NCBI GenBank assembly: GCA_036171755.1
Contig: JAVHRS010000035.1
Location: 2,882 to 26,881, forward strand
Source: Minisyncoccota bacterium
Lineage (GTDB): Bacteria > Patescibacteriota > Minisyncoccia > Phycocordibacterales > UBA9973
DNA length: 24,000 bases
Direction of reading: 5' to 3'
The position numbers and the translations under genes were made by a program. This document shows, in pieces, positions 2,045 through 19,651 of this stretch; position 1 is the stretch's first letter, and each line of letters opens with the position of its first letter. Below the pieces are notes generated by a model. The model was not told the DNA's origin. It worked only from the letters and a program-made list of their open reading frames with translations, and searched no databases.

Positions 2045-2076
2045 ATAGGGTTATCCACATGGATGACCCTATTTTT
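2045..2076 (+). terminator. Rho-independent terminator after the target gene
   Basis: 12-bp stem AUAGGGUUAUCC / GGAUGACCCUAU (2045-2056 / 2061-2072) with an ACAU loop, followed by UUUU. It lies ~65 nt after the VR stop codon and could also correspond to the hairpin described downstream of VR in some DGRs. Confidence 0.8.
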
Positions 2077-2344
2077 GCGTTTAATTCAAAAACTGATATA
2101 GTAACTATGAGCCTAGGTTAGTGTATAGTCGTTTACGGATGACTATCACCGAACTCTTTCTCTTATGAGAAATCTCCGACCAGAATTATAGTGATTATGG
2201 TTACTATAAGAGCGTCGCTGTGATAAGGGATACTGCTTACTACTTTTTAAGGCAAGCATGTAAATGTGTTGCCAGATAAAATACAGAATTGTGATTCATG
2301 TGCAATATCATGTTTCGTGATTTGTGATTTGGATAGAAAGTAGT

Positions 2345-2482
2345 AAAACTCCTGATGCTGATGGCGTGTTCTCGAAGGCTCCGATCTTCAACTTCAACGA
2401 TGACAAGCTTAAGTTCGACACGAACGATGTGTCCAATGCCAACGATAACTATGGTTCTGCCTCGGCGTTCGTTCCGAAGTAT
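2345..2482 (+). repeat. DGR template repeat (TR)
   Basis: Invariant copy of the VR. It carries in-frame AAC/AAT codons (six Asn codons) at the positions that differ in VR. The first non-adenine mismatch is at 2480 (T versus A), marking the IMH/IMH*-type boundary. The 85-aa track ORF 2324..2581 is this repeat, not a gene. Confidence 0.95.
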
Positions 2483-2493
2483 CCAATATACAC

Positions 2494-2521
2494 AAAAGGT
2501 ATCCTGTTAGGGATACCTTTT
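2494..2521. terminator. Bidirectional terminator hairpin between TR and the avd 3' end
   Basis: AAAAGGUAUCC / GGAUACCUUUU stem (2494-2504 / 2511-2521). The GC core has U-rich tails on both strands: UUUUGCUUUUAU on plus and UUUUGUGUAUAUU on minus. It ends 5 nt before the avd stop codon (2526-2528). Confidence 0.7.
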
Positions 2522-2525
2522 GCTT

Positions 2526-2873
2526 TTATCGTTCAACCGAACGAATCCATCCACCAAGCATTCTACCGATCTCGTCGGTAATATTTTGAAGCAGAGTGTA
2601 CTTCTTTACATCAAGCGTTTTACTTTCTTTCATTAGTCGAACAAAGAAACGAAAAATGTTTAATTTTACACTGGCTTTTTCAAGTAAAAGTAATTTGCGT
2701 TCTTTTGAAGAATAACTTGCTTCTAAGACATATTCGAGAATATCAATCATTACATTTTCAGATCGTTCATAGATTGAAAATCTTTCATGTTTTGGGACTA
2801 ATGTTCTGTATTCATGAAATGTTTTATATAACTCGTGAATTTTTCTTAGAATTGGCACATCATTTTCATTCAT
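2526..2873 (-). CDS. avd: DGR accessory variability determinant (Avd), four-helix-bundle type
   Basis: 115 aa. ...LNIFRFFVRLMKESK...ITDEIGRMLGGWIRSVER closely parallels the Bordetella phage bAvd C-terminus as I recall it (LRFWLRFL...EVGRILGSWIARV). It sits immediately beside a DGR RT but on the opposite strand. Confidence 0.85.
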   Translation of the reverse strand: MNENDVPILRKIHELYKTFHEYRTLVPKHERFSIYERSENVMIDILEYVLEASYSSKERKLLLLEKASVKLNIFRFFVRLMKESKTLDVKKYTLLQNITDEIGRMLGGWIRSVER

Positions 2874-3929
2874 ATGCGTGTATTTATCAATTTATTTAAT
2901 TCATTAATTCAGCCAGAACACCTATTTTATTCATGGGAGGAATTTAAACGTGACAAAGGTTTAAAGGAAGATATTCTCTTATTTGAGAAAAATCTTGAAA
3001 GTGAAATATTTAAGCTTCACCGAGAACTAAAAGGAGAAGTGTATAAACATAGCGGATATGAAAGTTTCTTTATTTCAGATCCGAAACGAAGACATATCCA
3101 TAAAGCAACAGTTAGAGACCGTGTAGTACATCATGCAATTATGCATACATTGTATCCTCTTTACGACAAAACATTTATTGATAATTCATTTTCTTGTCGT
3201 GTTGGTAAAGGGACCCATAAAGGTGTTCTTGCCCTTAGATCTATGATTGCCAAGGCGAGTAAAAATAATACTCAAACTGTTTACATTCTCAAGTGTGATG
3301 TTGAGAAATTTTTTGATTCAGTTCATCATATTATTTTAATTGATATACTTAGAAAAAGAATTAGGGACAAAAAACTCATGGATTTACTGATAGAAGTAAT
3401 TGAGAGTTTTATAAGTGATCGTTCTACTTTATTTGATCGTGTAGGTTTACCAATTGGAAATCTTACATCTCAACTTTTTGCAAACATATACATGGATAAA
3501 TTTGACCAATATATGAAGCATGAATTGAAAGTAAAATACTATGCTCGTTACACAGATGACTTTGTTATTGTGAGTAAAAATAAAGAATACTTGTCTAACC
3601 TTAAATTAGATATTTCTAAATTCCTTAGTGAGTCACTAAGACTTACTATTCACCCAAAGAAAATTACCATTCGTAAGTATACTCATGGTATTGATTTTCT
3701 AGGACATGTTTCTTTTCCACATCATGTATTGATAAGAAAAAGAACCTTAGAAAGAGCTACAAGAAGAATTAATGAGAAGATTGTTTTGTATAAAGCAGGA
3801 TCTCTTGAGAAAGAGAAACTTGAAGCCACTTTATACTCATATCTTGGAGTCCTTTCTCATGCCAATGCTTATAGATTTTCTGAGAAACTGAAGAATGACT
3901 ATTTTCTTTCGGTTAATAATCCTAATTAA
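2874..3929 (+). CDS. DGR-type reverse transcriptase
   Basis: 351 aa. Contains IGNLTSQLFANIYM (the DGR-diagnostic [LIV]GxxxSQ motif), the catalytic box YTDDFVIV, DFLGH, and N-terminal DPKRRHIHKATVRDRVVHHA. Adjacent to a TR/VR pair and avd. Confidence 0.95.
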   Translation: MRVFINLFNSLIQPEHLFYSWEEFKRDKGLKEDILLFEKNLESEIFKLHRELKGEVYKHSGYESFFISDPKRRHIHKATVRDRVVHHAIMHTLYPLYDKTFIDNSFSCRVGKGTHKGVLALRSMIAKASKNNTQTVYILKCDVEKFFDSVHHIILIDILRKRIRDKKLMDLLIEVIESFISDRSTLFDRVGLPIGNLTSQLFANIYMDKFDQYMKHELKVKYYARYTDDFVIVSKNKEYLSNLKLDISKFLSESLRLTIHPKKITIRKYTHGIDFLGHVSFPHHVLIRKRTLERATRRINEKIVLYKAGSLEKEKLEATLYSYLGVLSHANAYRFSEKLKNDYFLSVNNPN

Positions 3930-3981
3930 AAAAATTCGACTAGGTTTTATAATCAGCTAATTTGATTAAAGCTTTACAGAA

Positions 3982-5073
3982 TTACTGGCATTGAGGGCTT
4001 AATGTACGACTAGGAAATGAAGAAAGTAACGACTCTAAAGAAGTAAAGGATTTTATATATTTTTCATTTAATGACTTCCAACCATCACATGTTTCTGGAT
4101 AATAATATTTAGAAGTTGAATATGATGATGTGTAATACTTTCCAGTTGAGTTGGTGGTGTTTGTAGAAGTAGAAGAGGATGTTGAAGTCGCAGTAACAGC
4201 AGAAGTTGTAGTATTACCATTACATGTATTAGTAGACCATAACCCTAAAAGATTTGCTTGAGCATATTTTTGTGCTGTTTTAAATTCAGATTGATATTTA
4301 TATGGCGAGTTATAAGTATACTCATGTGCATATCCCTGTTCAATCATGTATTTATTATAAAATAGACCATCTTCTCTATATACATATGCTAAAGTACGCC
4401 CGTATTTATCGAGAGTGCCTTGAGTTGAATCACTTTCAATTCTAACTTTTTTCCCTGATAATAATTCTTTTGCTTTATTGGATGCCTCTTTACCAAAACA
4501 TTGAACTGGTTTCCTTGGATCAAGTGTTTCTGGGGTGTCTAATCCGATAAGGCGAAGCGTTATTATTGCTCCGTCTTTATTTATTTTAATAGTATCCCCA
4601 TCAACAACGCTTGAAACCGCATAATATTTATATTGAGAATTAGGCGAAGTTGTAGGTGTTTGTGCAGAAGTCACCGATTTAACTTCTTGTGCATTTTTTA
4701 CTTCTTGTTTAGCGGGTATTATTTCATTATTTATCTGTTGAGCTGGATTTTTTGTTTCTACTTGAACATTTGTATTTTCTAAAACATTATTATTTTGTGG
4801 AGCAGGTATTATTTCTGTTTTCTTTGGAAGAAAAATAGAAGAAACAATTAATAAGACAATTACAGCAACAATTTTTATTGTCCTTGAAAAGGAAAAATTA
4901 AATTTCTTTTGAATAAATTTAGAAATGACAGGAATTGTAATTAGTGAAGCAAGAATCATAAATATTCCACCTAGAATACTTTTTTCTAAAGTACTAAGAC
5001 CAGCTATTAACAACAATATACCTATGATCCAAGATAGAATGTTGATTAGATTTAATTTAATATTTTTATTCAT
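3982..5073 (-). CDS. Membrane-anchored thermonuclease (SNase) family nuclease
   Basis: Two N-terminal TM helices and a low-complexity linker precede the SNase core (VVDGDTIKI...RLIGLDTPET...CFGKEAS...DKYGRTLAYVY...GYAHEY). A Ser/Thr-rich tract and a small Cys-containing C-terminal domain (KYYYPETC...SPQC) follow. Confidence 0.85.
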   Translation of the reverse strand: MNKNIKLNLINILSWIIGILLLIAGLSTLEKSILGGIFMILASLITIPVISKFIQKKFNFSFSRTIKIVAVIVLLIVSSIFLPKKTEIIPAPQNNNVLENTNVQVETKNPAQQINNEIIPAKQEVKNAQEVKSVTSAQTPTTSPNSQYKYYAVSSVVDGDTIKINKDGAIITLRLIGLDTPETLDPRKPVQCFGKEASNKAKELLSGKKVRIESDSTQGTLDKYGRTLAYVYREDGLFYNKYMIEQGYAHEYTYNSPYKYQSEFKTAQKYAQANLLGLWSTNTCNGNTTTSAVTATSTSSSTSTNTTNSTGKYYTSSYSTSKYYYPETCDGWKSLNEKYIKSFTSLESLLSSFPSRTLSPQCQ

Positions 5074-5087
5074 AATTTGTAAATTAC

Positions 5088-5456
5088 TTAAGAAATGATA
5101 TTAATTAAAATAATTAGTCCTATAAAAATGGCTATAGCAATAAGAATCATTTTTCTCTGTTTGATATTTTTTACTTCTGCCTTTTTGTCCTCTGAAACAG
5201 CTTTTTCTATTTCTTCTTTAGACATAACCTCGCTTATTATCTTTTGTGCTCTTGGGGAGTCCATAGGTATTAGACTTGGACTTTTGCACTTAGGACATAT
5301 TTTATGTCTTGATGAGGAACGCCAAATTGAATAGATTAGCCCTGGGATAATAAAACAAAGCCAAAGGATTACTTCTATACAACCATTCCCTCCAATCGCA
5401 CCCTTTGGTTCACCGACATAATTACATTGAGTACAAACTAATATTTTTGATGACAT
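5088..5456 (-). CDS. Small membrane zinc-ribbon protein (LITAF-like arrangement)
   Basis: CTQC, then a hydrophobic stretch VILWLCFIIPGLIYSIW, then HKICPKC. This split zinc ribbon around a membrane-inserted segment resembles LITAF/SIMPLE domains. There is a second TM at the C-terminus. Confidence 0.6.
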   Translation of the reverse strand: MSSKILVCTQCNYVGEPKGAIGGNGCIEVILWLCFIIPGLIYSIWRSSSRHKICPKCKSPSLIPMDSPRAQKIISEVMSKEEIEKAVSEDKKAEVKNIKQRKMILIAIAIFIGLIILINIIS

Positions 5457-5480
5457 ATTTAAAAAATTAATTAATAATAT

Positions 5481-6194
5481 TTATTCATATAAAACAGTTA
5501 AAATGCCAGTACCAGAGAAATCACCTTGGTTTGGGGTATGGATTGTTATTACAGATTTTCCATATTTGTAATCTATGTTAGGATTAACATTTATTTTTTC
5601 CTCTGGAATTCGTATCTTTGGATAAATACCGCCAAAAATAATTTGGTCTGAGTTGAAATGCTGAGTGTAAACAAGTTTATCATTCTTTGACATTGAATTA
5701 CTGCCAGCGTATAACTTCACATCAGCTGTAATTAACATTTTTTCTGTTGCGTCACTAGTTATAATATCTCCATTTTTATCTAAATAAACTACTTCAAGAA
5801 CAGGTCCATCATTCTCGACATCAGCATCCCAATTATCTTGTAGTCCTCCACTAACTCGTATGGCAGATAGTCCATCTATCTGTAAAGTTTTATTAGATGA
5901 TATTGGTGTTGTTGGGACAACTTGAGTATTTGCGACCACTGGTACAGTTTTTGGAGTGGTAACTATTTTATTTTGAACCACTGTATCTTTTTGTATTACG
6001 TTAGTTTCTGCTACCGCAACAGGACTACTTACTGTTGATTCGACAATTGGAATCTCATCTTGTATTGGAATTTGAGCAATAGGTTCTTTTTTGTTTGAGA
6101 ATTTAGAACCAACAAATAGACCAATAACAAGTATTGCAACTATAACAACGATCTTACCTGTCATAGTTTCCATAAATTGTTTTACATCTTTCAT
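5481..6194 (-). CDS. Signal-anchored secreted/surface protein, unknown function
   Basis: 237 aa with an N-terminal hydrophobic anchor IVVIVAILVIGLFVG. The rest is not recognised. It is the first gene after leader RNA copy B and is tightly packed with the two downstream genes. Confidence 0.7.
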   Translation of the reverse strand: MKDVKQFMETMTGKIVVIVAILVIGLFVGSKFSNKKEPIAQIPIQDEIPIVESTVSSPVAVAETNVIQKDTVVQNKIVTTPKTVPVVANTQVVPTTPISSNKTLQIDGLSAIRVSGGLQDNWDADVENDGPVLEVVYLDKNGDIITSDATEKMLITADVKLYAGSNSMSKNDKLVYTQHFNSDQIIFGGIYPKIRIPEEKINVNPNIDYKYGKSVITIHTPNQGDFSGTGILTVLYE

Positions 6195-6403
6195 ATTAGA
6201 TTTACTTTTGCGTTTTTAGTGATAAAACCTAGTGATAAGACACAAAAAGCCCACCACATAGGTAGAGACCGAAGTCTCTCATATCAGTTTCCCGATACGG
6301 CATATCACGCGACCCCATATGATGGGTTCTTTATGCGTGATATGACTAACTTTCACCATGCCTTTATTTCTAAAGGTTTAGGCTACTTAAACTATTAACT
6401 TGT
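6195..6403 (-). ncRNA. Structured ~200-nt 5' leader RNA, copy B
   Basis: 6202-6397 is the second copy of 627-820. Helix changes relative to copy A are compensated: CAUAUCACGC/GCGUGAUAUG, GAGAC-UUCG-GUCUC and AUCGG-GAAA-CUGAU. It starts ~7 nt downstream of a perfect minus-strand TATAAT (6415-6410) and ends at the ATG at 6194. Confidence 0.8.
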
Positions 6404-6409
6404 AAAGAA

Positions 6410-6415
6410 ATTATA
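6410..6415 (-). promoter_or_regulatory. -10 box (TATAAT) driving leader copy B and the nuclease operon
   Basis: Perfect TATAAT on the minus strand, placed just before the point where similarity between the two leader copies begins. The -35 is weak or unclear. Confidence 0.45.
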
Positions 6416-6519
6416 CCTTATTTTTTAAGGTTGCACCATATTAGCTCACATTTAAATATTTGTGTAGTCGAGTTATCAACTAGAAGAAATAAGACTATAA
6501 AAATAGTGCAGTATTTACA

Positions 6520-7110
6520 CTATTTATTTTTAATTTTATCCAAAATATCTGCATAAATATTTAATGGATTAGATAATATTTTATCACTTTTTGTTGAAAT
6601 AATTTTATAAAACTTTTCATAAAACCAGAGTTGATCTTCCTTTGAGGAATTAAATTTATCCCAAATTGAATTATTGGTGGCCATCTCATCTAAAATTGTT
6701 TTTAAATTATGTATCTTATCACAAAGAGAAACAGTAGTTGCCTCAAGTGAAGCATTTTCTAGATGCTTTAAATATTTTTCTTTTCTTATTTTCCATGTTT
6801 CTTTATCATTACTTTCCATCTCAGGATCTTTATCTTCTGATACTTCTTTTATTATTTGTAAAACTTTTTCACCAAAAGTATTTTGGATAGAATTCTCCTT
6901 CTCAGACATTAAAACTTTTACATCTTCCAAAACATCATGCAACAAACAGGCAATAAAAATATCTTCATCATCAGTAAATTGACTAGCAATATACATAACC
7001 GAAAAAGGGTGAGAAATATATGGAATCTTTTCCTCACCTTTTCGAAAATAACCATCATGGAATTTTGCAGCAATTTGAATTGCTGTATTCAACCTAGAAC
7101 TAAAATTCAT
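6520..7110 (-). CDS. HD-domain phosphohydrolase, RelA/SpoT-type (p)ppGpp-hydrolase-like (small alarmone hydrolase-like)
   Basis: AIQIAAKFHDGYFRKGEEKIPYISHPFSV...ACLLHDVLEDV matches the SpoT/Mesh1 HD hydrolase pattern (H..Q.RK...PY..HP ... LLHDvvED). The protein is 196 aa and single-domain. Confidence 0.8.
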   Translation of the reverse strand: MNFSSRLNTAIQIAAKFHDGYFRKGEEKIPYISHPFSVMYIASQFTDDEDIFIACLLHDVLEDVKVLMSEKENSIQNTFGEKVLQIIKEVSEDKDPEMESNDKETWKIRKEKYLKHLENASLEATTVSLCDKIHNLKTILDEMATNNSIWDKFNSSKEDQLWFYEKFYKIISTKSDKILSNPLNIYADILDKIKNK

Positions 7111-7115
7111 ATAAT

Positions 7116-7367
7116 TTATTGATTGAGTGTATGTCCTAAGTATTCAAAACGATCAATCATTTTTCCATCTTTCTCAACTTTCTCAAAAAACATATCTAGT
7201 GGGCGTGCTGAAACCATAGAGCCTTTTCGATCCTTTAAATCACCATTAAGAGGAATATAAACAACGAGTCTCTCTTCTGTTTCTGTATGACGAGCAATAG
7301 CAAGAACTTGTACAAGAAGCCCCTTAAAGTGTTTATAAATACCAAGTTTAACATCTAAATTATTCAT
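7116..7367 (-). CDS. DUF1653 family protein
   Basis: LGIYKHFKGLLVQVLAIARHTETEERLVVY...ARPLDMFFEKVEKDGKMIDRFEYLG matches the DUF1653 pattern as I remember it (YRHYKG.LY.V...A.HSETEE.LVVY...RPL.MF...V...G..V.RFEY.G). Confidence 0.8.
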   Translation of the reverse strand: MNNLDVKLGIYKHFKGLLVQVLAIARHTETEERLVVYIPLNGDLKDRKGSMVSARPLDMFFEKVEKDGKMIDRFEYLGHTLNQ

Positions 7368-7398
7368 AAGTTTAAATTATTTTTATCTAATAATACTA

Positions 7399-7426
7399 TT
7401 GATTATACCAAAATATATAGTATAAT
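7399..7426 (+). promoter_or_regulatory. Promoter of the Csx3-like fusion gene (near-leaderless mRNA)
   Basis: TTGATT (7399-7404), a 16-nt spacer, then TATAAT (7421-7426). The ATG at 7435 is only 8 nt past the -10 box, so the transcript would have almost no leader. Confidence 0.55.
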
Positions 7427-7434
7427 CAATATAT

Positions 7435-8667
7435 ATGAAAGAGGGTCAAGAAAGTTTTATACATAAAGATAATAAAATTGAACAAAAGAACTTTTTTGAA
7501 AAAGGTCTTAAAATTGTTGTTGGTGGACCGCCACATTCAGGTAAATCTGTATTTCTTGATGGATTATTAAAAAATCTTCCATATAATACTCACTATTTTA
7601 GTGGATGCCCTGATGGCGAAGGCCCATGGCTCCAAAGACACTATACTGAAGATGAGGTAAAAGCATTACGTCGTAAAGGTTCGTTTACGGAAGAGTTTGT
7701 AAATTTTGCACATGATGCAGTCAAAGACTTTGATGGTCAACTTATGCTTATTGATATTGGTGGTCGAATTACTCCAGAAAATATGAAAATTATTTCAGGG
7801 GCGACTCACGCAATTATTCTTTCTGGTGATACTAAAAATTTTGATGAATGGAATGATTTTTTTAAGAAGGAAGGTATAGAAATTATTGCAAAGCTTCATA
7901 GTGATTATGAGGGTAAAGAAGATACAATAACGGAAGATAATGAACAAATACAAGGTAGTGTTCATTATCTTGAAAGAGGACAACATCCAGAAGATAGAGA
8001 GAGTATAAAATTTGTTGCTGAACATATTACCGAACTTGTTAAAAAAAATGAAGAGAAAAAGAATATATCATTAGAGGATAATAATGAGCTTTTGAAAGTG
8101 GACTCATTAGTTTTTGAATATAATCTTAAGGCTAATTATGATAAAGAAACAGTTCCTGAGACATTAACTGGCTTACAAAAATATTTAAAAGATAATTATA
8201 GTGATTCTAAACAAATCAAGATCGATGGGCGTATAAATTCATATCTTGCTGGTTTTTTAGGAACTGAACTTGCAAATGGAGAACGAAAAATATCTTTCAA
8301 TAGTCCAAATGGTTTTGTTGGATTAAAGGAACTCAATCAATCCGAAAATGGAAATGTTATTGATTGGGAACAAAAAGAAAATATTACAAAACATGGAGAT
8401 TCTTTTCTTGAAATTAATTTTAAACTAGACCCATCAAAGCCTTTTAAACCAGAAGATTTAGATGAAATGAATATCCCTAAGATTAGCACGGGTAAAATTG
8501 TATCTATTGGCGGTAAGGGTCCACATTGGCTTAGAACGTCTATTGCAATAGGATATAAAAAGGATGCACAAGTTATTGCTATGTTCATTCCAGGAGAAGG
8601 ATCTATTGTTGTACATTCAAAAGATATAGAAAAATATCCCCTTGGAACATTACTTGAAAATAAATAA
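7435..8667 (+). CDS. P-loop NTPase fused to tandem Csx3-like (Crn3 ring-nuclease-like) domains
   Basis: The N-terminus has a Walker A motif, VVGGPPHSGKS. The C-terminus KIVSIGGKGPHWLRTSIAIGYKKDAQVIAMFIPGEGSIVVHS parallels A. fulgidus Csx3 as I recall it (GVVISGRGPIWLHCFLAHKY...VAVYDPRLGAVVVQS). A degenerate copy lies upstream (IKIDGRINSYLAGFLGTEL...ISFNSPNGFVGL). Not verified by search. Confidence 0.65.
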   Translation: MKEGQESFIHKDNKIEQKNFFEKGLKIVVGGPPHSGKSVFLDGLLKNLPYNTHYFSGCPDGEGPWLQRHYTEDEVKALRRKGSFTEEFVNFAHDAVKDFDGQLMLIDIGGRITPENMKIISGATHAIILSGDTKNFDEWNDFFKKEGIEIIAKLHSDYEGKEDTITEDNEQIQGSVHYLERGQHPEDRESIKFVAEHITELVKKNEEKKNISLEDNNELLKVDSLVFEYNLKANYDKETVPETLTGLQKYLKDNYSDSKQIKIDGRINSYLAGFLGTELANGERKISFNSPNGFVGLKELNQSENGNVIDWEQKENITKHGDSFLEINFKLDPSKPFKPEDLDEMNIPKISTGKIVSIGGKGPHWLRTSIAIGYKKDAQVIAMFIPGEGSIVVHSKDIEKYPLGTLLENK

Positions 8668-8691
8668 CCTCATAGATAAATCTATGAGGTT
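8666..8691. terminator. Bidirectional terminator between convergent genes
   Basis: 11-bp perfect stem AACCUCAUAGA / UCUAUGAGGUU with a UAAA loop and A/T-rich flanks. It overlaps the stop codon of 7435..8667. Confidence 0.75.
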
Positions 8692-8713
8692 ATTTATTTA
8701 GGAAACATTCAAA

Positions 8714-9616
8714 CTAATTTAGCTTTTCCTCAATCATCTTGAACTCTGGAGTATTACCAAATTCAGATCGTATTTTTTCTAAAAGATTTTTGATCATCTC
8801 TTTATCCATTTTAATCATTCCAGATTCTTCAAGATTCTTACCTTCCTGTCGAAGTGATTGAAGCCCAATTACTTCAGCTAATTCGAATTGTCTTGTTTCT
8901 GGATTAGAAGCTAAACGAATCATATTAGGCCATTGTCCACTAATACCATAGATTGCTGTTGTTTGAAGTGTTCCTAATGCCCCCAAACCAGCAGGAGCGT
9001 AAGCAACCTTACCTGATTCCCAGTCACCAACAGTCATACCGGCTTTTTGAGACGCTTCAACAAGAGCGGAAATAATTTTATTTTTCCCATCACCAGAAAT
9101 TTCTTCCGTAGTAATTTTATTGTCCCCAAAAGGTACAAATACAAGATTTTCTACTGTTGTCCCCATTTCTTCAGCAAGTGCTAAATGTTGATCAGCTGAT
9201 ATAGGGTGTCCACCTTGTAAAACAAATGTTTTACCCGATGCACTTCCTTCAATTCTCTGTCCACGAGCATCACGAGAAGCTTCATGTCGCCATTCAGACA
9301 AATTGATTTCAACGGGTTCTGATCCTGGTACAACAAGAAGAGCTTTTTTAGGTAATCCTGCTATCATTTCAGTGAGAGCAAGAAATATTCCAGATGCATG
9401 AGCCTGCCCAGGCAAAGCTATCTTGTCTGCATTTTTAATCTTACTAAGATTTGCAGAAACATATTCTTTTACTTGATCAATTAGATGCTTATCTTTTTCA
9501 AGATTAAGATTCAATACTTCTGTCTTTATATTTTCTCCAGTAATTGTAGGTACTGTTGAAAATGTGGATTCTGGTTGCTTTTCAGCAGAATTTACACGTT
9601 CAAATTTTGGTTCCAT
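8714..9616 (-). CDS. Unknown two-domain protein, paralog of 9718..10548
   Basis: 300 aa. It is collinear with the upstream gene product: EINLSEWRHEASRDAR versus ELNLHDFRHNQARPKR; TTVENLVFVPF versus GTETLVFANL; YAPAGLGALGTLQTTAIYGISGQWP versus MITAGLSPVNAILVTALHALCESWC; FELAEVIGL versus FHFTDLIQL. It has its own TGn-TATAAT -10 box on the minus strand (9653-9648). Confidence 0.75.
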   Translation of the reverse strand: MEPKFERVNSAEKQPESTFSTVPTITGENIKTEVLNLNLEKDKHLIDQVKEYVSANLSKIKNADKIALPGQAHASGIFLALTEMIAGLPKKALLVVPGSEPVEINLSEWRHEASRDARGQRIEGSASGKTFVLQGGHPISADQHLALAEEMGTTVENLVFVPFGDNKITTEEISGDGKNKIISALVEASQKAGMTVGDWESGKVAYAPAGLGALGTLQTTAIYGISGQWPNMIRLASNPETRQFELAEVIGLQSLRQEGKNLEESGMIKMDKEMIKNLLEKIRSEFGNTPEFKMIEEKLN

Positions 9617-9673
9617 ATATTTTATAAAGTTAATTACTAATAATTTGATTATAACATTTTTTTACAATAAAAA

Positions 9674-9700
9674 AGAGCGATTCCAATGTGGAACCGCTCT
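9674..9700 (-). terminator. Rho-independent terminator after 9718..10548
   Basis: On the minus strand: AGAGCGGUUCCA-CAU-UGGAAUCGCUCU followed by UUUUUUAUUG. Confidence 0.75.
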
Positions 9701-9717
9701 TTGCCAGTATGTTTAGA

Positions 9718-10548
9718 TTACCGGTTAATTTTTCTCAATTCATCCCCGAGTAACGTTCCTTCGGGATGTTCATTGAGCAATTGCTCAAAAACATCTTTAG
9801 GAACAAGAACGGGAGCACTCCCAGCGTTTGCAGTTCTGCCAAGGGCTTCCATTTTTCCCAACTGTATTAAGTCAGTGAAATGGAAAGTTCCTTCTTTGTT
9901 TTCTGCAACTGGCTGAGAACACCAGCTTTCACAAAGAGCATGTAGAGCAGTTACCAAAATTGCATTTACTGGGGAAAGTCCCGCAGTAATCATGATAACT
10001 CTGCGACTGGCAATTGAGTTACTAACTCCAGCACTTGAAAGTGCATTTGTTAACTCTTCAAGAAGCCATTCCGCTAAACCATTTTGACCTAAGTCAATCT
10101 GGCCAAGCTGAAGGTTAGCAAATACCAGTGTTTCAGTCCCAGCCAACTCAGAGAGCTCGGCTTTTTGGTGTTCAGGTACTTCACGTCCTGAAGCATTCAC
10201 AATAATCACTGCATCCTGGGACAAATTGTCCTCAGTTGCAAGGAATGTTGCACGCTTCGGCCTTGCTTGATTGTGACGGAAATCATGGAGATTTAACTCT
10301 CCCTTATTAATTCCATCAGGTCCAATCAAAGCAATCGTGGGAAATGTATTATTCTTTCCACGCAAGAATGCGCAGATTGAACTTCCAACTCCTGGTATCG
10401 GATGAAGCACTACTACCTCTTCTGTAGAGGCATTGACTCCAGAAATTTGAGCTTTAATCTGCTCTGCAATTGGAGTTCCGGGAACAATACTGAATGCGTA
10501 ATTCTTTTCACCTTGTACGCGAGGGTTTGTTGAAAATAAAGTTTTCAT
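9718..10548 (-). CDS. Unknown two-domain (Rossmann-like?) protein, paralog of 8714..9616
   Basis: 276 aa and relatively GC-rich. Strand-loop-helix elements VVVLHPIPGVGSSICAFL and RVIMITAGLSPVNAILVTALHAL suggest nucleotide- or ligand-binding folds. No family recognised with confidence. Confidence 0.75.
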   Translation of the reverse strand: MKTLFSTNPRVQGEKNYAFSIVPGTPIAEQIKAQISGVNASTEEVVVLHPIPGVGSSICAFLRGKNNTFPTIALIGPDGINKGELNLHDFRHNQARPKRATFLATEDNLSQDAVIIVNASGREVPEHQKAELSELAGTETLVFANLQLGQIDLGQNGLAEWLLEELTNALSSAGVSNSIASRRVIMITAGLSPVNAILVTALHALCESWCSQPVAENKEGTFHFTDLIQLGKMEALGRTANAGSAPVLVPKDVFEQLLNEHPEGTLLGDELRKINR

Positions 10549-10584
10549 TTTTTTATTTTTTAAATTAAAATTATTTATTATTCA

Positions 10585-10642
10585 CTCTTGAAATGAATAT
10601 TATAAGTACTTATTTAAATACCCATAATACTCATTTCAAGAG
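10585..10642 (-). promoter_or_regulatory. 19-bp hairpin in the 5' UTR of 9718..10548
   Basis: Arm 10585-10603 (ctcttgaaatgaatattat) pairs with 10624-10642 (ataatactcatttcaagag). The single imperfect position (10597/10630) is A.C on the plus strand but a G.U wobble on the minus strand. The loop is 20 nt. Confidence 0.6.
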
Positions 10643-10730
10643 AATTGAATAAAATTTCAACAAACCTAATTGAGATATTTATTAAAGAACAATTTTATAA
10701 GGCTGAATTTTCTCCTAACCCTACTTGCCT

Positions 10731-10759
10731 ATGATAGCATATTTATACTTCTTTGTCAA
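10731..10759 (-). promoter_or_regulatory. Candidate promoter for 9718..10548
   Basis: On the minus strand: TTGACA (10759-10754), a 17-nt spacer, then TATCAT (10736-10731). It lies downstream of the hammerhead and upstream of the 19-bp hairpin. Confidence 0.45.
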
Positions 10760-10801
10760 GTATTATATTGACATAAAATATAAATAATGTTAAAAAACAA
10801 T

Positions 10802-10854
10802 TCTATTTTCGTCCTTTTGGACTCATCAGTCAGGGCACACACCCTGAGAATAAA
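10802..10854 (-). ncRNA. Type III hammerhead self-cleaving ribozyme
   Basis: Minus-strand RNA: UUUAUUC^UCAGGG-UGUGUG-CCCUGA-CUGAUGA-GUCC-AAAA-GGAC-GAA-AAUAGA. The core is complete: C3-A9 CUGAUGA, the G10.1/C11.1 pair, G12A13A14, the A15.1-U16.1 pair and C17. Stems I (6 bp) and II (4 bp) are closed hairpins. Stem III is open: 6 bp, AAUAGA/UUUAUU, including one G.U. The predicted cleavage is after C17, between plus positions 10848 and 10847. Confidence 0.85.
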
Positions 10855-10899
10855 GGGTTCAGGAATATGTCCATCCCCCTTATTTTAATTAAAGAACAA

Positions 10900-11784
10900 T
10901 TACAGTCTCCTCAACACGGCCTCATCAAATACATTTATAGCATCAGAGCTTACTACGTTAGCAAGTTTAAAAACTTGTTGTACTAAATCTGTAGCTTCTG
11001 TTTTTGAGAGTTTAGGTTGTAGGTTCTGATTGATAGATTCTTGTAAATACCACTGTCTAGGTGATAATAACTTGAACCCAGCATCACTAACTTTTTCTCT
11101 CCATCCATCTTCTGGAAGAATTTCTTCATCTTCATGACCTTCATAAAAAGGTTTAGAGGATTCAGGCATCCACGAAGACATGTTTTGCGAACAGTATCGA
11201 AAACCTTTTACATCAAAATAATCATATCCGAGTTTTTTAATTTCTGTTAAAAAACTCAAGTCTGATACTCCTGAAATATAAGGATGTGCAATTGGCAAAC
11301 ACGATACACCGAACTCTTTTGCAAGAGCTAATGTATGCAAATGTTTTTGAAGAGAAACTTTTTCAATACTCCAATTTCCAGTTATACCTAGTATAAGATA
11401 AAAATTTGGATATTGTGCTAATTTTTGCATAACTTCACGACTAATTGGCCATTTTGTTACGCAAGTTGTAAGTTTTGCAACACTACTTGCTTTTTCCATC
11501 CATTCCCATAGGTATTTTTCAATTTTCGGGAAGAACGGATCAGTAATTGCAGTAAATCCTACAAAGTCACCTTTTAGAATTTTCCAAGGAAATTCTTTAA
11601 AGCGTTTTTGTTCATCCGAATCAGTATCAATCCATGGTGTGACATTCACAAAGCTACATGCTTTATTTATCCCCATTAATGGATTTTGATTCCAAATTTC
11701 TCTACGTACTTCATGCTCTGTGATGAAGCAGTATTTACAGGCAACTGGACATGCCGGCTCACCTGAAACGAATTTTTGTTTCAT
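10900..11784 (-). CDS. Radical SAM enzyme (SplB-like/'DNA repair photolyase'-type barrel)
   Basis: Contains CPVACKYCF (CxxxCxxC), followed by GFTAITDPFFPKIE and CVTKWP, which resemble the COG1533-type tDPYqP.E / TK pattern. I prefer the ATG at 11784 (MKQKFVSGEPACPVACKYC). The track start at 11859 would overlap the upstream gene by ~100 nt. Confidence 0.8.
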   Translation of the reverse strand: MKQKFVSGEPACPVACKYCFITEHEVRREIWNQNPLMGINKACSFVNVTPWIDTDSDEQKRFKEFPWKILKGDFVGFTAITDPFFPKIEKYLWEWMEKASSVAKLTTCVTKWPISREVMQKLAQYPNFYLILGITGNWSIEKVSLQKHLHTLALAKEFGVSCLPIAHPYISGVSDLSFLTEIKKLGYDYFDVKGFRYCSQNMSSWMPESSKPFYEGHEDEEILPEDGWREKVSDAGFKLLSPRQWYLQESINQNLQPKLSKTEATDLVQQVFKLANVVSSDAINVFDEAVLRRL

Positions 11785-12340
11785 TATCAATTTTTGGTTT
11801 TTGTATCTCACATATACCAATGATTTCATCGAGCACCTTATTGGGTGATTGATCTGCATTAATTACATGTAAGAGATTTTTTGAAGAATAAAATTCAAGT
11901 AGCTGTGGTATCCTACCTAGTTCAATAAGTAAGCGTTCGTTCATTTTTTCAAGTGAATCATCTTTTCTGTTTCTGTCTAAGGCACGTTTTATACATAACT
12001 CATCACTGAGTTCAAAATATATAACATGTGTAGGTTTAATAGAAAATAATTCAGCTTGATGTACATTTCGTGGAAATCCATCAACAACCCATGAATCTAA
12101 ATCCTGAAGTTTTGATTGTGCAATTTGCACAGTTAGTTCGTCAGGAAGTGGTTTCCATGTTTTTTGATTAAAGTGGTCTCGAATAGATTGATGCAAGGAG
12201 TGCTCAAGGTTAGATGCTATTTCGCGTGATACATCACCAATAGAAATATGTGGTATTTTGTATTTTTGCGAAAGCATCTCACCTTGAGTTCCTTTACCTG
12301 TACCTGGTTTACCTAACAATACGATTTTCATATCTTTCAT
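11759..12340 (-). CDS. Adenylate-kinase-like nucleoside monophosphate kinase (short, no zinc lid)
   Basis: IVLLGKPGTGKGTQGEMLSQKYKIPHISIGD and VVDGFPRN match the Adk P-loop and NMP-binding signatures (GxPGxGKGTQ, DGFPR). Its 3' end overlaps the radical SAM start, suggesting translational coupling. Confidence 0.8.
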   Translation of the reverse strand: MKDMKIVLLGKPGTGKGTQGEMLSQKYKIPHISIGDVSREIASNLEHSLHQSIRDHFNQKTWKPLPDELTVQIAQSKLQDLDSWVVDGFPRNVHQAELFSIKPTHVIYFELSDELCIKRALDRNRKDDSLEKMNERLLIELGRIPQLLEFYSSKNLLHVINADQSPNKVLDEIIGICEIQKPKIDNETKIRFR

Positions 12341-12352
12341 TGTATTTTAAGA

Positions 12353-13582
12353 TTAAGAATTCGTAAAGAGGTTATTATAGGTAAAACTTTTTTTGCAAAC
12401 TTTAGTCTTTCTATCCTCTGGAAGCTCAATCATCTCAAGTAACCTAGAAGGATTAAAACCGAAGCTTTTTTGTTCATGAATATAATATTTCTCAATACAA
12501 TATTTGCAATCGAAACATTTCTTCATTGCAGTAGCTATTGGCCACCATGAGTTCAAACAAGTGATTTCAGGAACTTTTGGGAAATTAGGAAAATTAACTT
12601 CTCCAACATCCTTCATTCCCTTATCTCTACAACCATCTTGCTGGCATATCATACCAGTAAGAAACCTCATAAAAGTGAGATCTCCTAAACGAATTTTACC
12701 TCTAACTTCTATATGAGGATTTTCGTTTAAAAAGAAACACGTCGTGCAACATGATATACATTTAAGGCGATTACTTGCCTCAACATCACATTTCTGTTGC
12801 ACTTCATTCCCAGCAACAAACTTTACGTCGTAGCCAAGTTCTTTTAAAAACTCGATACTACCTTCACGAGGTTCAGATAGTCCTTGACAAGTCGTAAGAA
12901 GTGGACAACTTACCTCACTACATTTCACTAATTTTGGTGAATTGTAATAAGGGTTATATGTCCACTTATGCCCAAGCAAGAAGTCCACAGCACAGCTTGT
13001 CCTTGTGAACAACTGCACTCCAAACTCTTTACTTGCTGCTAAAGTATCAGACCAGATTTCGGGTGTAATTTGCTTTACCCGCAGGACCCATTCGGTCACT
13101 TCTGCGGGTTGCATTTCGTTAACAAGCATCTCATCCCCACGAAATCCAGCCACTACTGCCGCTCGACAATTGACTTCACTAAGACGACGGAAGATATAAT
13201 TAATTGTCTCCCGATTAGTATTGTACGGCGGAGTCAATGGTCTTATATACCCAATAGCAGGAACCCCTACCTCATTTAAGAGGCGGATATTCTCGTATCG
13301 GTGCTCATGTCCTACATTTTCCATACTTCTAAGTTCAGAGATGGAAACGAGGACCACGATGTTCAAGCCTTTGTCCTTACGAAGACGAAGATCAGCGACC
13401 TTACCCTCGCAAAGACGACCCTTCAAAATCAAACCTACTGGACCCTCATGATGAGTCTCCAATAGATCATCCAGTTTTGTGAGCGTATCCGACCACTGAA
13501 GAGTCGGGTCCCCATAAAAGTTATTTATAGAGACAGGAATCTGTCGAAGCAAACTCTTATACATTTCTGTTTTTTCTTTCAT
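12353..13582 (-). CDS. Radical-SAM-like barrel paralog lacking the N-terminal CxxxCxxC, with a Cys-rich C-terminal extension
   Basis: The N-terminal half parallels the neighbouring radical SAM protein: VSINNFYGDPTLQW versus GFTAITDPFFPK, and VVAGFRG versus DVKGFRY. No Cys triad precedes it. The C-terminal half carries CSEVSCPLLTTC, CDVEASNRLKCISCCTTCF, CQQDGC and CFDCKYCI. Confidence 0.7.
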   Translation of the reverse strand: MKEKTEMYKSLLRQIPVSINNFYGDPTLQWSDTLTKLDDLLETHHEGPVGLILKGRLCEGKVADLRLRKDKGLNIVVLVSISELRSMENVGHEHRYENIRLLNEVGVPAIGYIRPLTPPYNTNRETINYIFRRLSEVNCRAAVVAGFRGDEMLVNEMQPAEVTEWVLRVKQITPEIWSDTLAASKEFGVQLFTRTSCAVDFLLGHKWTYNPYYNSPKLVKCSEVSCPLLTTCQGLSEPREGSIEFLKELGYDVKFVAGNEVQQKCDVEASNRLKCISCCTTCFFLNENPHIEVRGKIRLGDLTFMRFLTGMICQQDGCRDKGMKDVGEVNFPNFPKVPEITCLNSWWPIATAMKKCFDCKYCIEKYYIHEQKSFGFNPSRLLEMIELPEDRKTKVCKKSFTYNNLFTNS

Positions 13583-13673: not shown

Positions 13674-15020
13674 CTACAAAGCAATCTTATTTATTGCTTT
13701 AATAAACCTCTCTGCATCTTCTTCTGTGTTCTGTAATCCAAATGAAGCTCTCACAAATCCTGGTACTGCATTTTCCTTACCATTTTGTACATCCTTTATG
13801 ATTTGTGTTTCATCTTTTATTTTAAGTAATTTACGGACTACATTATAAACACAGAAGCTTCCAGCTCTAACTCCAATACCATATTCTTTATTAAGTCTCT
13901 CTGCAACTTCTTTATTAGTCATGCCTTTAATATTAAAAGGAATGACTGTGTTTAAATGTTTTTCATTTACATAAATATCTATTTTTGGATTCTTCTTCAT
14001 TTCCTCGTACACTTTCTTAGTTAATCCTTTCTCATATTCCTCTATATTTTTTATTCCAATTTCTTTAACTTTATTTAAGGCTATTGCCATAGACACAGCA
14101 CCAATAGCATTCGGAGTTCCTGGATCATGAGCAATTTGGTTATGATATCTAAGAAATTCTCCATTTTTTGTGATATAAGGTAAATTTCCACCCCCAATTT
14201 CATAAGAAATAAATTGATCAAAGAAATCTTTTGGTCCTATTAAGAATCCTCCACCGTATGGTGCATAAAATTTATGCCCTGAGGCGGCTAAGAAATCTAT
14301 ACCCATTTCTTCCATGTTTATTTCATGGTGTTGTATATACTGACATCCATCAACGATAAAGTATGCACCATTTTCATGAACAATTTTACCTATTTCTTTT
14401 ATCGGAGGACAGTATCCTGTAACATTTGATGAAGCTGTAAGAACAAAAACTTTGATTTTATTCTTAATAAATATTTTTTTAATATCTTCTAAGTCAAATT
14501 CAAATTCATCATTAACAGAATATTTTACAATTTGTTTACAACCTTCTTCTTGGATCTTTTTATTTACACTTTCCATTTCACTTATTGCCACTTGATTTAC
14601 TCCAAGTGATTTTATCCCTTCATTTTTCACCCAAGGAAGCCATGATGAGCTATGTTCTATATCAGAAACAGCTACTTTTCCATCAAGAAATGAAAAGAAG
14701 TGAGAGATAGAATTCATTGCTCCTGTTGTGTTTCCAGTGAATACTACATATGAATCATTTGGTGCTCCGACAAATTTACAGATAGTATTTCGACTATCTT
14801 CATATATGTCTGTAGATTTCTCTGACTTAGCTCCTGCTCCACGATGGACAGAACCATAAGAAATCATATAATCCATAACTCCTTTTTCTACATCTATAAA
14901 TGGTGAAGTTGTCGCGGCATTATCTAGATTCACATAAGAAACCTTTTCTAGTTTTTTTGTCTCTACTTGATACTCAAGTATTTCTTTTCGAAATAATTTT
15001 TTTGGATTAATTATATTCAT
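13674..15020 (-). CDS. Class V aminotransferase-fold PLP enzyme, cysteine-desulfurase-like
   Basis: Contains YVNLDNAATT, SVHRGAGAKSEKST and ASGHKFYAPYGGGFLIG (PLP lysine). VRAGSFCVYN is comparable to the SufS/CsdA RxGxHC active-site cysteine loop. Confidence 0.8.
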   Translation of the reverse strand: MNIINPKKLFRKEILEYQVETKKLEKVSYVNLDNAATTSPFIDVEKGVMDYMISYGSVHRGAGAKSEKSTDIYEDSRNTICKFVGAPNDSYVVFTGNTTGAMNSISHFFSFLDGKVAVSDIEHSSSWLPWVKNEGIKSLGVNQVAISEMESVNKKIQEEGCKQIVKYSVNDEFEFDLEDIKKIFIKNKIKVFVLTASSNVTGYCPPIKEIGKIVHENGAYFIVDGCQYIQHHEINMEEMGIDFLAASGHKFYAPYGGGFLIGPKDFFDQFISYEIGGGNLPYITKNGEFLRYHNQIAHDPGTPNAIGAVSMAIALNKVKEIGIKNIEEYEKGLTKKVYEEMKKNPKIDIYVNEKHLNTVIPFNIKGMTNKEVAERLNKEYGIGVRAGSFCVYNVVRKLLKIKDETQIIKDVQNGKENAVPGFVRASFGLQNTEEDAERFIKAINKIAL

Positions 15021-15527: not shown

Positions 15528-16856
15528 ATGAAAATAGATAACCCAAATCAAGAGAAAGGTGTCGAGAAAATTAAGGTCGAACCAAAGAAGATTAGATACT
15601 GCCTTTATGCAAGAAAATCAACAGAATCAGAGGAAAGACAAGTCCTTTCCATAGACAGTCAAATCAGCGAGATGCTCCAATTAGCCGATCGTGAGGGGCT
15701 TGAGGTGGTCACCATGAAGCGTGAAAGCCATAGTGCTAAAGAGACTGGACAAAGACCTGTTTTTAACGAAATAATCGAAGAACTCAAACAAGAGAAGTTT
15801 AATGCCATACTCACATGGGCACCTGACCGTATTTCAAGAAATGCGGGAGATTTAGGAAAGATTGTAGATTTAATGGATGCAGGAAAATTGCATATGATAC
15901 GAACCTTCGGACAAACGTTTGGGAATAATCCAAATGAGAAATTTCTTCTAATGATTCTTGGCTCGCAAGCAAAACTAGAAAATGATAACCGAGGTATCAA
16001 CGTTAAGCGTGGATTGCGAACGAGAGTAGAGATGGGATTATGGCCTGGGATGGCACCATTGGGATATTTAAATCAAAAATTAATGGATAGGAAGTGTCAG
16101 ATAGTAATTGATCCAGATAGAGCACCGATCATAAAGAAAATGTTTGAGAAAGTAGTATATGAACATTGGAGTGGCAGAAAAGTATACAACTGGTTACGAT
16201 TTGATTTAAATTTCTATACTCGAGGAAACAAACCCCTGACACTCTCAGGGGTTTATCGTATCTTTAATATGCCAATCTATTATGGACCATTTGAATACCC
16301 TAGAAATTCTGATAACTGGTATCAAGGAAGTCATACACCAATAATTACTCAGGAATTATTTGAAAAAGCTCAAGCACAATTAAAAAGAGATAGAATTGTG
16401 AGAGAAAATAGAGAGTTCGCATTCACTAAATTATTTACATGTGGAATGTGTAGTTCAGGGATATCTGCTCAAGAGAAGTATAAAGAGCTTAAAGATGGAA
16501 CTACTGCTAAATATGTCTACTACTCCTGTTCAAAAGCAAGAGATAGAAATTGTAAAAATAAATATATCAGAGAAGAAGAATTGATAGATGAATTATTTAA
16601 AGTGATTGATAAGGTAAGTATTAATGAACTAGGAATGCGAATTAAACTTGAAGAAGAGATAAAGCGATTTAATCGACTTCAAAGATTAGCAACAAAAGGT
16701 ACACCGAAATACTCAACCAATGAGGATGATGTAAACACAAGAGAGTATGCTAAGTATGTACTTAGAGAAGGCACACCGCTCGAAAAAAGAGAATTGCTTG
16801 GACATTTAAGGAGTAGATTGGTGCTGAATGATAAGAAAATTACACTCGTAGAATAA
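15528..16856 (+). CDS. Large serine recombinase (phage-integrase/transposon type)
   Basis: The N-terminal resolvase catalytic region is RYCLYARKSTESEERQVLSIDSQ (Ser nucleophile context). A recombinase domain follows, then a Cys cluster CGMC...YYSC and a coiled-coil tail. 442 aa. Confidence 0.9.
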   Translation: MKIDNPNQEKGVEKIKVEPKKIRYCLYARKSTESEERQVLSIDSQISEMLQLADREGLEVVTMKRESHSAKETGQRPVFNEIIEELKQEKFNAILTWAPDRISRNAGDLGKIVDLMDAGKLHMIRTFGQTFGNNPNEKFLLMILGSQAKLENDNRGINVKRGLRTRVEMGLWPGMAPLGYLNQKLMDRKCQIVIDPDRAPIIKKMFEKVVYEHWSGRKVYNWLRFDLNFYTRGNKPLTLSGVYRIFNMPIYYGPFEYPRNSDNWYQGSHTPIITQELFEKAQAQLKRDRIVRENREFAFTKLFTCGMCSSGISAQEKYKELKDGTTAKYVYYSCSKARDRNCKNKYIREEELIDELFKVIDKVSINELGMRIKLEEEIKRFNRLQRLATKGTPKYSTNEDDVNTREYAKYVLREGTPLEKRELLGHLRSRLVLNDKKITLVE

Positions 16857-19573: not shown

Positions 19574-19651
19574 TTTTTTGTAACTTGTAGCTTTGTGGGT
19601 CACAGCTCAACGTCGAGCATGTAGGTCCTCAAAACTAACAGGTTGTCCCTG

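Follow-up and report, generated by a model that had tools for sequence, protein, structure and literature searches.

Clusters of hammerhead ribozymes that flank genes in bacterial or prophage operons were described by Perreault et al. in 2011, for Clostridium scindens, Agrobacterium tumefaciens ardA and Azorhizobium caulinodans (PMC3088659). Hammerhead clusters near integrases cleave during in vitro transcription of native fragments of ~2 kb, and processing of polycistronic RNA was proposed as their role (PMC3088659), a proposal that a review repeats along with the gene-flanking location (PMC6765202). Intergenic bacterial hammerheads of types I and III were reported in 2010-2011, as cited in PMC6155905, and thousands are now known from bacteria and phages, with their biological role still called open (PMC6765202, PMC6155905). 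Here we consider one of them, a type III hammerhead on the minus strand of a 24,000-nt stretch of DNA from a Minisyncoccota bacterium (contig JAVHRS010000035.1; this whole stretch is called the window). It lies just past the last gene of an operon, which encodes a radical-SAM-like protein, and before genes for Csx15-like proteins. The hammerhead is real and, judged by its sequence, very probably active. The interpretation that we favour, and consider probable on the strength of comparison with related loci, is that it acts constitutively in the 3′ untranslated region (UTR) of the operon, where it would form the mRNA 3′ end and insulate the upstream operon.

How does it compare with what is known? 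Like the clusters of Perreault et al., the window ribozyme is intergenic and co-oriented with genes, has a canonical core and a recombinase gene nearby, and invites the proposal of polycistronic processing; the likeness extends to related loci, which hold 2-6 copies flanking single genes and in one of which (L109) the U10.1-U11.1 variant recurs. Unlike those clusters, the window has one copy, which is tied to a cluster of SufS-like, Cys-rich and radical-SAM-like genes plus Csx3/Csx15 in a lineage of the Patescibacteria or Candidate Phyla Radiation (CPR) type, and which has an abutting upstream hairpin and a position just past a stop codon. With RF00008 and plant satellite hammerheads it shares capped stems I and II, an open stem III, the core, G10.1-C11.1 and A15.1-U16.1. 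However, unlike the satellite-RNA hammerheads, it is part of a DNA genome and lies between protein genes, and as it is a single copy with no tandem or opposite-polarity partner, a rolling-circle role is not indicated. The glmS ribozyme is likewise a cis-cleaver within a bacterial mRNA, and its products, which carry 2′,3′-cyclic phosphate and 5′-OH ends, determine the stability of the downstream RNA, but it is in a 5′ UTR, uses GlcN6P as cofactor and has an unrelated fold, whereas the window ribozyme is without a ligand domain. RiboJ-type synthetic insulators, with a hammerhead and then a hairpin, serve the 5′ end of the downstream gene and make ends independent of context. Both they and the locus described here combine a self-cleaving hammerhead with a flanking hairpin, though the order in the window is the reverse, hairpin first and ribozyme second, and the RNA to be capped would be the upstream one, at its 3′ end.

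A limited literature search found no published report on hammerheads in CPR/Patescibacteria, and no description of the regularities of upstream hairpin and post-stop position set out below. As gene-flanking bacterial hammerheads have been known since 2010-2011, the link to a CPR gene cluster and the hairpin-ribozyme module are modest additions.

The ribozyme and its class

Read 5′ to 3′ on the minus strand from 10854 to 10802, the segments are UUUAUUC^UCAGGG-UGUGUG-CCCUGA-CUGAUGA-GUCC-AAAA-GGAC-GAAA-AUAGA, and all invariant hammerhead nucleotides are present (Table 1). Since stems I and II are capped by loops and stem III is open to the flanking RNA, the topology is that of type III. A15.1 (10807) is paired with U16.1 (10849), and the nucleotide 5′ of the scissile bond is one other than G, namely C17. 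The structural features of the class are all there: the core, A15.1-U16.1, H17, three core-adjacent helices with covariation, and the type III topology. Hammerhead cleavage leaves a 2′,3′-cyclic phosphate on C17 and a 5′-OH on U1.1. In the window the predicted cut, 10848/10847, is 52 nt past the stop codon (10902-10900) of the upstream open reading frame (ORF), which agrees with a first-pass annotation of this DNA that had recognised a type III hammerhead with every core nucleotide and had put its cleavage site ~52 nt after the stop. No ORF of at least 40 aa covers the ribozyme site, the overlapping ones all being of 39 aa or less.

Stem III has 6 bp, one of them G-U, is AU-rich and has a duplex energy of ~-0.1 kcal/mol. 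The first-pass annotation had called the other stems and their loops minimal, and had wondered whether activity depends on context or Mg2+. The concern about the loops is misplaced, since UGUGUG and AAAA are the conserved consensus of a natural family, and the suggested dependence is not what the literature would lead one to expect: the contact between loops 1 and 2 matters for fast cleavage at physiological Mg2+, and natural type III hammerheads in which both are retained are quick cleavers even when Mg2+ is low (PMC6155905), and a weak stem III is common among natural hammerheads (PMC3088659).

A scan of the window with Rfam at its curated gathering thresholds does not report the ribozyme. 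At a relaxed threshold, Hammerhead_3 (RF00008), the model with which the earlier reader had proposed to check the prediction, does match 10849-10807, but at 30.3 bits against a gathering score of 48.5 (E = 0.0071 for the whole window, 1e-4 for 351 nt) and locally, over model positions 7-48, with stem III left outside the alignment. The shortfall is a matter of threshold alone; no defining structural feature of the class is absent. Quite another score comes from R2, a covariance model whose 36 source sequences are all hammerheads of viral contigs, the window and related-locus sequences having been excluded; it gives the window ribozyme 73.0 bits and E = 2.7e-19 in a 0.5-Mb search; a further model, R1, gives 75.8 bits. 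By this comparison of sequences, chance resemblance is excluded. A second hammerhead in the 24-kb window was found neither by R1 nor by R2 nor by Rfam at E ≤ 1, and Rfam at E ≤ 1 found no other self-cleaving ribozyme family there. A viroid-like or retrozyme unit is delimited by two ribozymes, and with a single hammerhead in 24 kb the window does not hold one, as had been argued from the first reading.

The family and its covariation

Matches to the 3′ half of the ribozyme (CTGATGAGTCCNAAAGGACGAAA) occur at 78 viral-contig loci, nearly all of them type III hammerheads of the same architecture. Their consensus has a 6-bp stem I, a loop 1 that begins with a wholly or almost invariant UG and is most often UGUGUR/UGAGUG, stem II GUCC/GGAC with NAAA as loop 2, and GUC or similar at the cleavage site. 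The window loops agree with it, and the window stem I is identical to that of viral contig L026. The same design is present in three IMG/VR contigs of 322-377 nt (L037, L046 and L091), with GUCC-GAAA-GGAC as stem II and loop 2 and UGUGUA as loop 1; 322-377 nt is a typical size for circular viroid-like satellite RNAs.

In an alignment of 40 family members, standard pairs fill 93.9% of the pair cells; shuffles reach 68%, and controls with shifted partners 34-42%. All six pairs of stem I have two-sided changes in these members, with pairing at 100%; of the six pairs of stem III, five show covariation in the family, and in the A15.1-U16.1 column U-A is invariant in 40/40 sequences, as it is in 18/18 copies from the related loci considered in the next section. 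In those 18 copies 92.6% of the cells are paired, stem I is again 100% paired with all six pairs covarying, and 14 of 16 pairs have two-sided changes, figures to be read with the knowledge that this alignment was fitted to the covariance model and that the structure is thereby somewhat favoured. Taking both alignments, two-sided changes are found at 12-14 of the 16 pairs, while the shifted-partner controls are at 34-49%.

Could the window sequence nevertheless be a chance likeness, or a dead relic that does not cleave? A score below the Rfam gathering threshold, an AU-rich stem III with a duplex energy barely below zero (~-0.1 kcal/mol), and a hammerhead fold that is not the one of minimum free energy (MFE) are what such an explanation would draw on, but an independent model with E = 2.7e-19, core positions that are all canonical, loops that fit the family consensus and covariation in syntenic copies make it extremely improbable.

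Copies in related gene clusters

The comparison set consists of 16 genome and 46 metagenome loci, ~0.5 Mb in total, that encode relatives of the radical-SAM-like protein. Covariance models find 18 distinct hammerheads in them, all 18 on the gene strand; an initial regular-expression scan had demanded CUGANGA...GAA, and the syntenic copies with variant cores were recovered through a reading of L001 and through the covariance models. In L095 and L001/L096 (proteins 73-74% identical), the ribozyme is 27-28 nt past the stop codon of the homologous gene, and the whole order of hairpin, ribozyme and the same conserved promoter is shared. In L109 and L125 a copy is ~140-150 nt past the homologous gene. 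Between syntenic copies stem I varies in a compensatory manner, as UCAGGG/CCCUGA, GGCAGG/CCUGCC, UCGGAG/CUCCGA and CGUGAG/CUCACG, and in the relatives so does stem II, as GUCC/GGAC, GCCC/GGGC, GCUC/GGGC and GUCG/CGAC. Stem III is also variable among syntenic copies, while the loops stay constant as UGUGUR and RAAA.

In L006/L110 and L104, other copies follow a small Csx3-like gene and flank a P-loop gene on either side; in L013 and L099 the position is just upstream of the SufS-like gene. The number per cluster, one in the window, is two in L104, three in L006/L110 and six in L109. Hammerheads are present in 6 of the 7 distinct clusters that have a Csx3/P-loop/DUF1653 module and in 4 of the 33 others (Fisher p = 3e-4, with kinship ignored). 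In homologous clusters that lack the ribozyme, what follows the radical-SAM-like gene is often a canonical terminator or a strong hairpin, L012, L113 and L126 being examples.

L109 merits a description of its own. Its six hammerheads are within 10 kb (1952-12082), each in a repeat of ~130 nt with a long upstream hairpin, and fall into two subfamilies, one of which has U10.1-U11.1. That pair, in three L109 copies, is a known active natural variant (PMC3088659). Two plus-strand copies, at 10923 and 12025, flank a Fic/DOC gene of the opposite strand, so the RNA made from the stretch that separates the two would be antisense to Fic/DOC.

The upstream hairpin and the post-stop position

Immediately 5′ of the window ribozyme, ViennaRNA folds a hairpin (AAUAAGGGG...CCCUUUAUU) whose 3′ arm includes the 5′ strand of stem III, because of which it would compete with stem III before cleavage. 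AAUAAG of the hairpin (10884-10879) and AAUAGA of the ribozyme (10807-10802) are near-equivalent partners for UUUAUU. The 5′ product predicted for the window ends in the hairpin with a 1-nt tail, the range in the family being 0-9 nt. L095 has a homologous hairpin and L001 one at the equivalent place, and 13 of the 18 copies in related loci have a stable hairpin that ends within a few nt of the 5′ strand of stem III. In phage contigs (n = 55) the 45 nt upstream of the ribozyme have a mean MFE of -13.5 kcal/mol, compared to -3.1 kcal/mol for the 45 nt downstream (Wilcoxon p = 1e-9). It is this folding-energy comparison that we rely on, since the other statistic, the length of the unpaired 3′ tail of the cleavage product, was poorly separated from its control. 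Several phage contigs (L019, L021, L023, L026, L033, L043, L048, L050 and others) have a near-identical upstream hairpin (GGUGUCUUCAAAGACACU-like). As other phage copies have unrelated GC-rich hairpins at the same place, what is conserved is the structure and its position, not the sequence.

The position relative to genes is no less regular. Of 52 copies in the phage contigs, 43 have the orientation of the coding strand and 46 fall between genes; the ribozyme starts at a median of 32 nt (interquartile range 28-51) after the end of an ORF on the same strand, and at a median of 222 nt before the next ORF. Such stereotyped placement after an ORF implies that the unit is part of the preceding gene's 3′ end.

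The overlap of hairpin and stem III does raise the possibility of a conditional switch, in which AAUAAG (10884-10879) and AAUAGA (10807-10802) would vie for UUUAUU and Mg2+, temperature, transcription speed or a factor would tune cleavage and with it the amount of read-through to the ring-nuclease-like genes. The two alternative helices have nearly the same pair set, the MFE in context favours the hairpin conformer by ~8.5 kcal/mol, and the hairpins of L095, L104 and L125 also extend into the stem III strand. But in L001, L006, L014, L099 and L109 the hairpin ends before stem III, with tails of 5-9 nt, so the competition is not conserved; in addition no ligand-binding domain is present and the downstream genes have their own promoter. 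We regard a switch as improbable.

How the ribozyme may act

Having passed the stop codon at 10900, where no intrinsic terminator is predicted (nor is one anywhere on the minus strand from 10899 to 10549), polymerase would transcribe the hairpin and then the ribozyme. Folding of stems I and II would allow the two conserved loops (UGUGUG and AAAA) to dock; the 3′ strand AAUAGA would then pair with UUUAUU as stem III, and self-cleavage would occur after C10848. The upstream mRNA would keep the 2′,3′-cyclic phosphate, and the hairpin 10884-10849 would recapture the short, weak stem III strand, which would make product release irreversible and leave a hairpin-capped 3′ end that may be expected to resist 3′ exonucleases. 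Read-through RNA towards the Csx15-like genes would be severed and begin with a 5′-OH, those genes, on this proposal, having a conserved promoter of their own (10759-10731) for their expression. The outcome would be a defined 3′ end for the operon mRNA, whose level and stability would be uncoupled from the ring-nuclease-like module downstream. The first-pass annotation had already suggested trimming of the operon 3′ end or severing of a read-through transcript, and it is this role that comparison best supports, through the syntenic post-stop position and the 32-nt median in phage contigs. What the sequences themselves show are the motif, its family membership and covariation, synteny, the upstream hairpin, the promoter motif and co-orientation.

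What weighs against it? To begin with, the proposal rests on comparison: cleavage and the RNA ends at the locus are predicted, and cleavage in vivo, insulation and the protection of the end by 2′,3′-cyclic phosphate and hairpin are what we infer. Then, the hammerhead fold is not the thermodynamic minimum, at -13.6 against -17.1 kcal/mol for a 58-mer and, when enforced in context, at -25.2 against -33.7 kcal/mol. The energy model leaves out the tertiary energy of the core and of the loop-loop contact, and in context the reason that the hammerhead is not the MFE fold is that the upstream hairpin sequesters the stem III strand. Also, distribution is patchy, with ribozymes in 10 of the 40 distinct clusters that have enough flank, and not all copies of this hammerhead lineage have kept the core. 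U4C (core CCGAUGA) is found in two separate lineages, at L001 6906-6963 (= L096 7906-7963) and at L125 8013-8070, and A13C (GCAA for GAAA) in the third L006/L110 copy (L006 4266-4323 = L110 1903-1960), which is within a possible ORF. The U4C and A13C copies are likely to be attenuated or dead, and with such core changes in some relatives selection on catalysis is not uniform. Finally, there are copies just 12-16 nt before a start codon, that of the SufS-like gene in L013 and of the HD gene in L104, so that for the family a role at 5′ ends is possible too.

The last of these points leads to an alternative for the window, which is that cleavage would give the Csx15-like mRNA a defined 5′-OH end with the folded ribozyme body as a 5′ stabiliser. 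Besides the L013 and L104 copies, there is a precedent in a halovirus hammerhead 13 nt before a start codon that coincides with a mapped 5′ end (PMC3088659). For the window, 5′-end maturation is distinctly improbable: a conserved near-consensus promoter lies between the ribozyme and that gene, which is 254 nt away, and across the phage set the position of the ribozyme goes with that of the upstream stop codon rather than with that of the next start.

Patchiness and degenerate cores bear more on another alternative, that hairpin and hammerhead are the passenger of a mobile or phage-derived cassette, a small repeat, possibly with the AAUUGUUCUUUAA motif, which may self-cleave and which drift or selfish spread, not a benefit to this operon, would have kept. 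Along with the presence of the unit in only some homologous clusters and with U4C and A13C, such a cassette would suit the six copies in 10 kb of L109 as a ~130-nt repeat unit with two subfamilies, an architecture near-identical to that of phage-contig hammerheads, down to an identical stem I in L026, the serine recombinase gene ~500 bp from the start of the window operon, and the 17-nt direct repeats that bracket the unit there. It would less readily account for a post-gene position kept across relatives with compensatory changes in the stems, an orientation that is strictly that of the gene strand, or the stereotyped placement just past stop codons. Nor are mobility and function mutually exclusive. 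We consider a passenger cassette rather unlikely, and prefer 3′-end formation and insulation.

The genes and other elements of the window

Coordinates of the ribozyme, the genes on either side of it and the other features named are in Table 1.

Table 1. Positions, within the window, of the ribozyme segments and of neighbouring features
Feature	Position	Strand	Basis
Type III hammerhead, positions 16.6 to 15.6	10802..10854	minus	sequence read directly; covariance models
Stem III 5′ strand (UUUAUU)	10854-10849	minus	sequence
C17 and predicted scissile bond (before U1.1)	10848; bond 10848/10847	minus	hammerhead numbering applied to sequence
Stem I, UCAGGG/CCCUGA, 6 bp	10847-10842 with 10835-10830	minus	sequence, covariation
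Loop 1, UGUGUG	10841-10836	minus	sequence
Core strand C3 U4 G5 A6 U7 G8 A9 (CUGAUGA)	10829-10823	minus	sequence
Stem II, GUCC/GGAC, 4 bp, including G10.1-C11.1	10822-10819 with 10814-10811	minus	sequence
Loop 2, AAAA	10818-10815	minus	sequence
Core G12 A13 A14	10810-10808	minus	sequence
Stem III 3′ strand, A15.1 to 15.6 (AAUAGA)	10807-10802	minus	sequence
Upstream hairpin, AAUAAGGGG...CCCUUUAUU; 3′ arm includes stem III 5′ strand	10849..10884	minus	ViennaRNA folds
17-nt direct repeat (AUAAAAUUGUUCUUUAA-like), three copies	10905-10889, 10806-10790, 10698-10682	minus	
SufS-like cysteine desulfurase gene, upstream operon	13674-15020	minus	
Cys-rich protein gene, 409 aa, upstream operon	12353-13582	minus	
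Adenylate-kinase-like protein gene, upstream operon	11759-12340	minus	
Radical-SAM-like gene, 294 aa (MKQKF), last of upstream operon	10900..11784	minus	homologues, CxxxCxxC motif
Sigma-70-like promoter, TTGACA-17-TGnTATCAT	10731..10759	minus	promoter scan, 11/12 matches + TG extension
Csx15-like gene, 276 aa, downstream	9718..10548	minus	NCBIfam CAS_Csx15, PADLOC
Second Csx15-family gene	8714-9616	minus	NCBIfam CAS_Csx15, PADLOC
Csx3-AAA gene	7435-8667	plus	

The window has ~33% G+C. In the upstream operon, the 319-aa ORF that is obtained mechanically at 10900-11859 (minus strand) overlaps the adenylate-kinase-like gene by ~100 nt; homologues, of ~294 aa, point to the ATG at 11784 as the real start of the radical-SAM-like gene. 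The earlier label of radical SAM for its product is partly sustained. The CxxxCxxC motif is invariant and 12 of 23 homologues match Pfam PF04055, but the protein's own match to that family is sub-threshold (E = 0.0037, 17.9 against 29.5 bits), for which reasons radical-SAM-like is a fair wording. PDB sequence and profile searches with this protein and the Cys-rich one gave nothing useful. The homologues are mostly from metagenome-assembled genomes (MAGs) of Patescibacteria/CPR (Saccharibacteria, Moranbacteria, Uhrbacteria). The cluster of SufS-like, Cys-rich (~400 aa), optional adenylate-kinase-like and radical-SAM-like genes is present in ~50 loci (L001-L016 and L095-L140), mostly from Patescibacteria MAGs, and no Pfam family or PADLOC system covers it as a whole; fusions of adenylate-kinase and radical-SAM-like proteins also exist (P0021 and P0022). 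A subset of the clusters adds Csx3, Csx3-AAA, Csx15, DUF1653 and HD genes, which encode ring-nuclease-like proteins, and no CRISPR-Cas genes are visible in the window.

Downstream, the first Csx15-like gene starts 254 nt past the ribozyme. The E-values with NCBIfam CAS_Csx15 are 2.8e-4 and 2.2e-13 for the two genes, and PADLOC also calls Csx15. Csx15 and Csx3 are described as ring nucleases in the literature. PADLOC matches in the window are DndA/SspA-like, pVip-kinase-like, Csx15 and Csx3 only, with no named system. In between is the candidate promoter of the first-pass annotation, real as a motif, with its 11 of 12 matches and its conservation in two relatives, L095 and L001. The same annotation had described the ribozyme as embedded between operon genes; rather than a single operon, the gene sets on its two sides more likely make up two co-directional transcription units.

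As a candidate terminator the ribozyme together with the U-run that follows it (UUGUUUUUU) was considered and dropped, the U-run not being conserved (in L095) and stem III being too weak.

The 17-nt repeats are spaced by 108 and 99 nt, in the layout repeat, hairpin plus hammerhead, repeat, promoter, repeat, long hairpin, and the second of them shares bases with the 3′ strand of stem III. Their core, GTTCTTTA, is common and oriented in the related CPR loci, where 25 of its 48 matches lie between genes, and it comes directly after hammerheads in L104, L006 and L109. It might serve as an operator or a promoter element, or mark a junction of cassettes. The Csx15-like leader, between promoter and start codon, has an inverted repeat at 10574-10653, with 39-nt arms that are 77% complementary and 2 nt apart, which may be a regulatory hairpin.

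Further away there are two full-length copies of LOOT RNA (Rfam RF03000) on the minus strand, at 687-807 and 6264-6384 (74.9 and 73.6 bits). A sequence at 19651-19738 (minus) passes the Rfam tRNA-Sec threshold of 47 with 48.6 bits, but scores 54.7 with the general tRNA model and is tRNA-Ser(UGA) for ARAGORN; most likely it is an ordinary long-arm tRNA-Ser. The serine recombinase gene at 15528-16856 (plus strand), ~500 bp from the start of the operon, a reverse-transcriptase gene (RVT_1) at 2874-3929 (plus) and a staphylococcal-nuclease-domain gene at 3982-5073 (minus), all within the same 24 kb, together suggest a mobile-element or defence-island setting.

Meaning

The locus does not change what a hammerhead is, and to a specialist its presence here will not come as a surprise, though it does extend the class to genomes of the Patescibacteria/CPR type. 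What it offers is a clean natural test case in which the order is fixed, from the stop codon, 52 nt ahead of the cut, through the hairpin that abuts the ribozyme and the one canonical ribozyme itself to a conserved promoter, and for which syntenic relatives supply natural ‘mutants’ (U4C and A13C). Together, the upstream hairpin and the placement ~30 nt past stop codons point to 3′-end formation. Is this then a wider phenomenon? As a tentative generalisation, to which we would give somewhat less than an even chance, hairpin and hammerhead may together be a module that is widely used by phages and CPR to form mRNA 3′ ends, the ribozyme counterpart of an intrinsic terminator, set ~30 nt past the stop codon and yielding a hairpin-captured end with 2′,3′-cyclic phosphate; in these bacteria it may have been preferentially recruited to clusters that combine SufS/radical-SAM-like genes with Csx3/Csx15 (6/7 against 4/33), and would there determine how strongly the two modules are expressed relative to each other. 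If true, such a modular 3′-end device would give bacterial hammerheads a concrete function.

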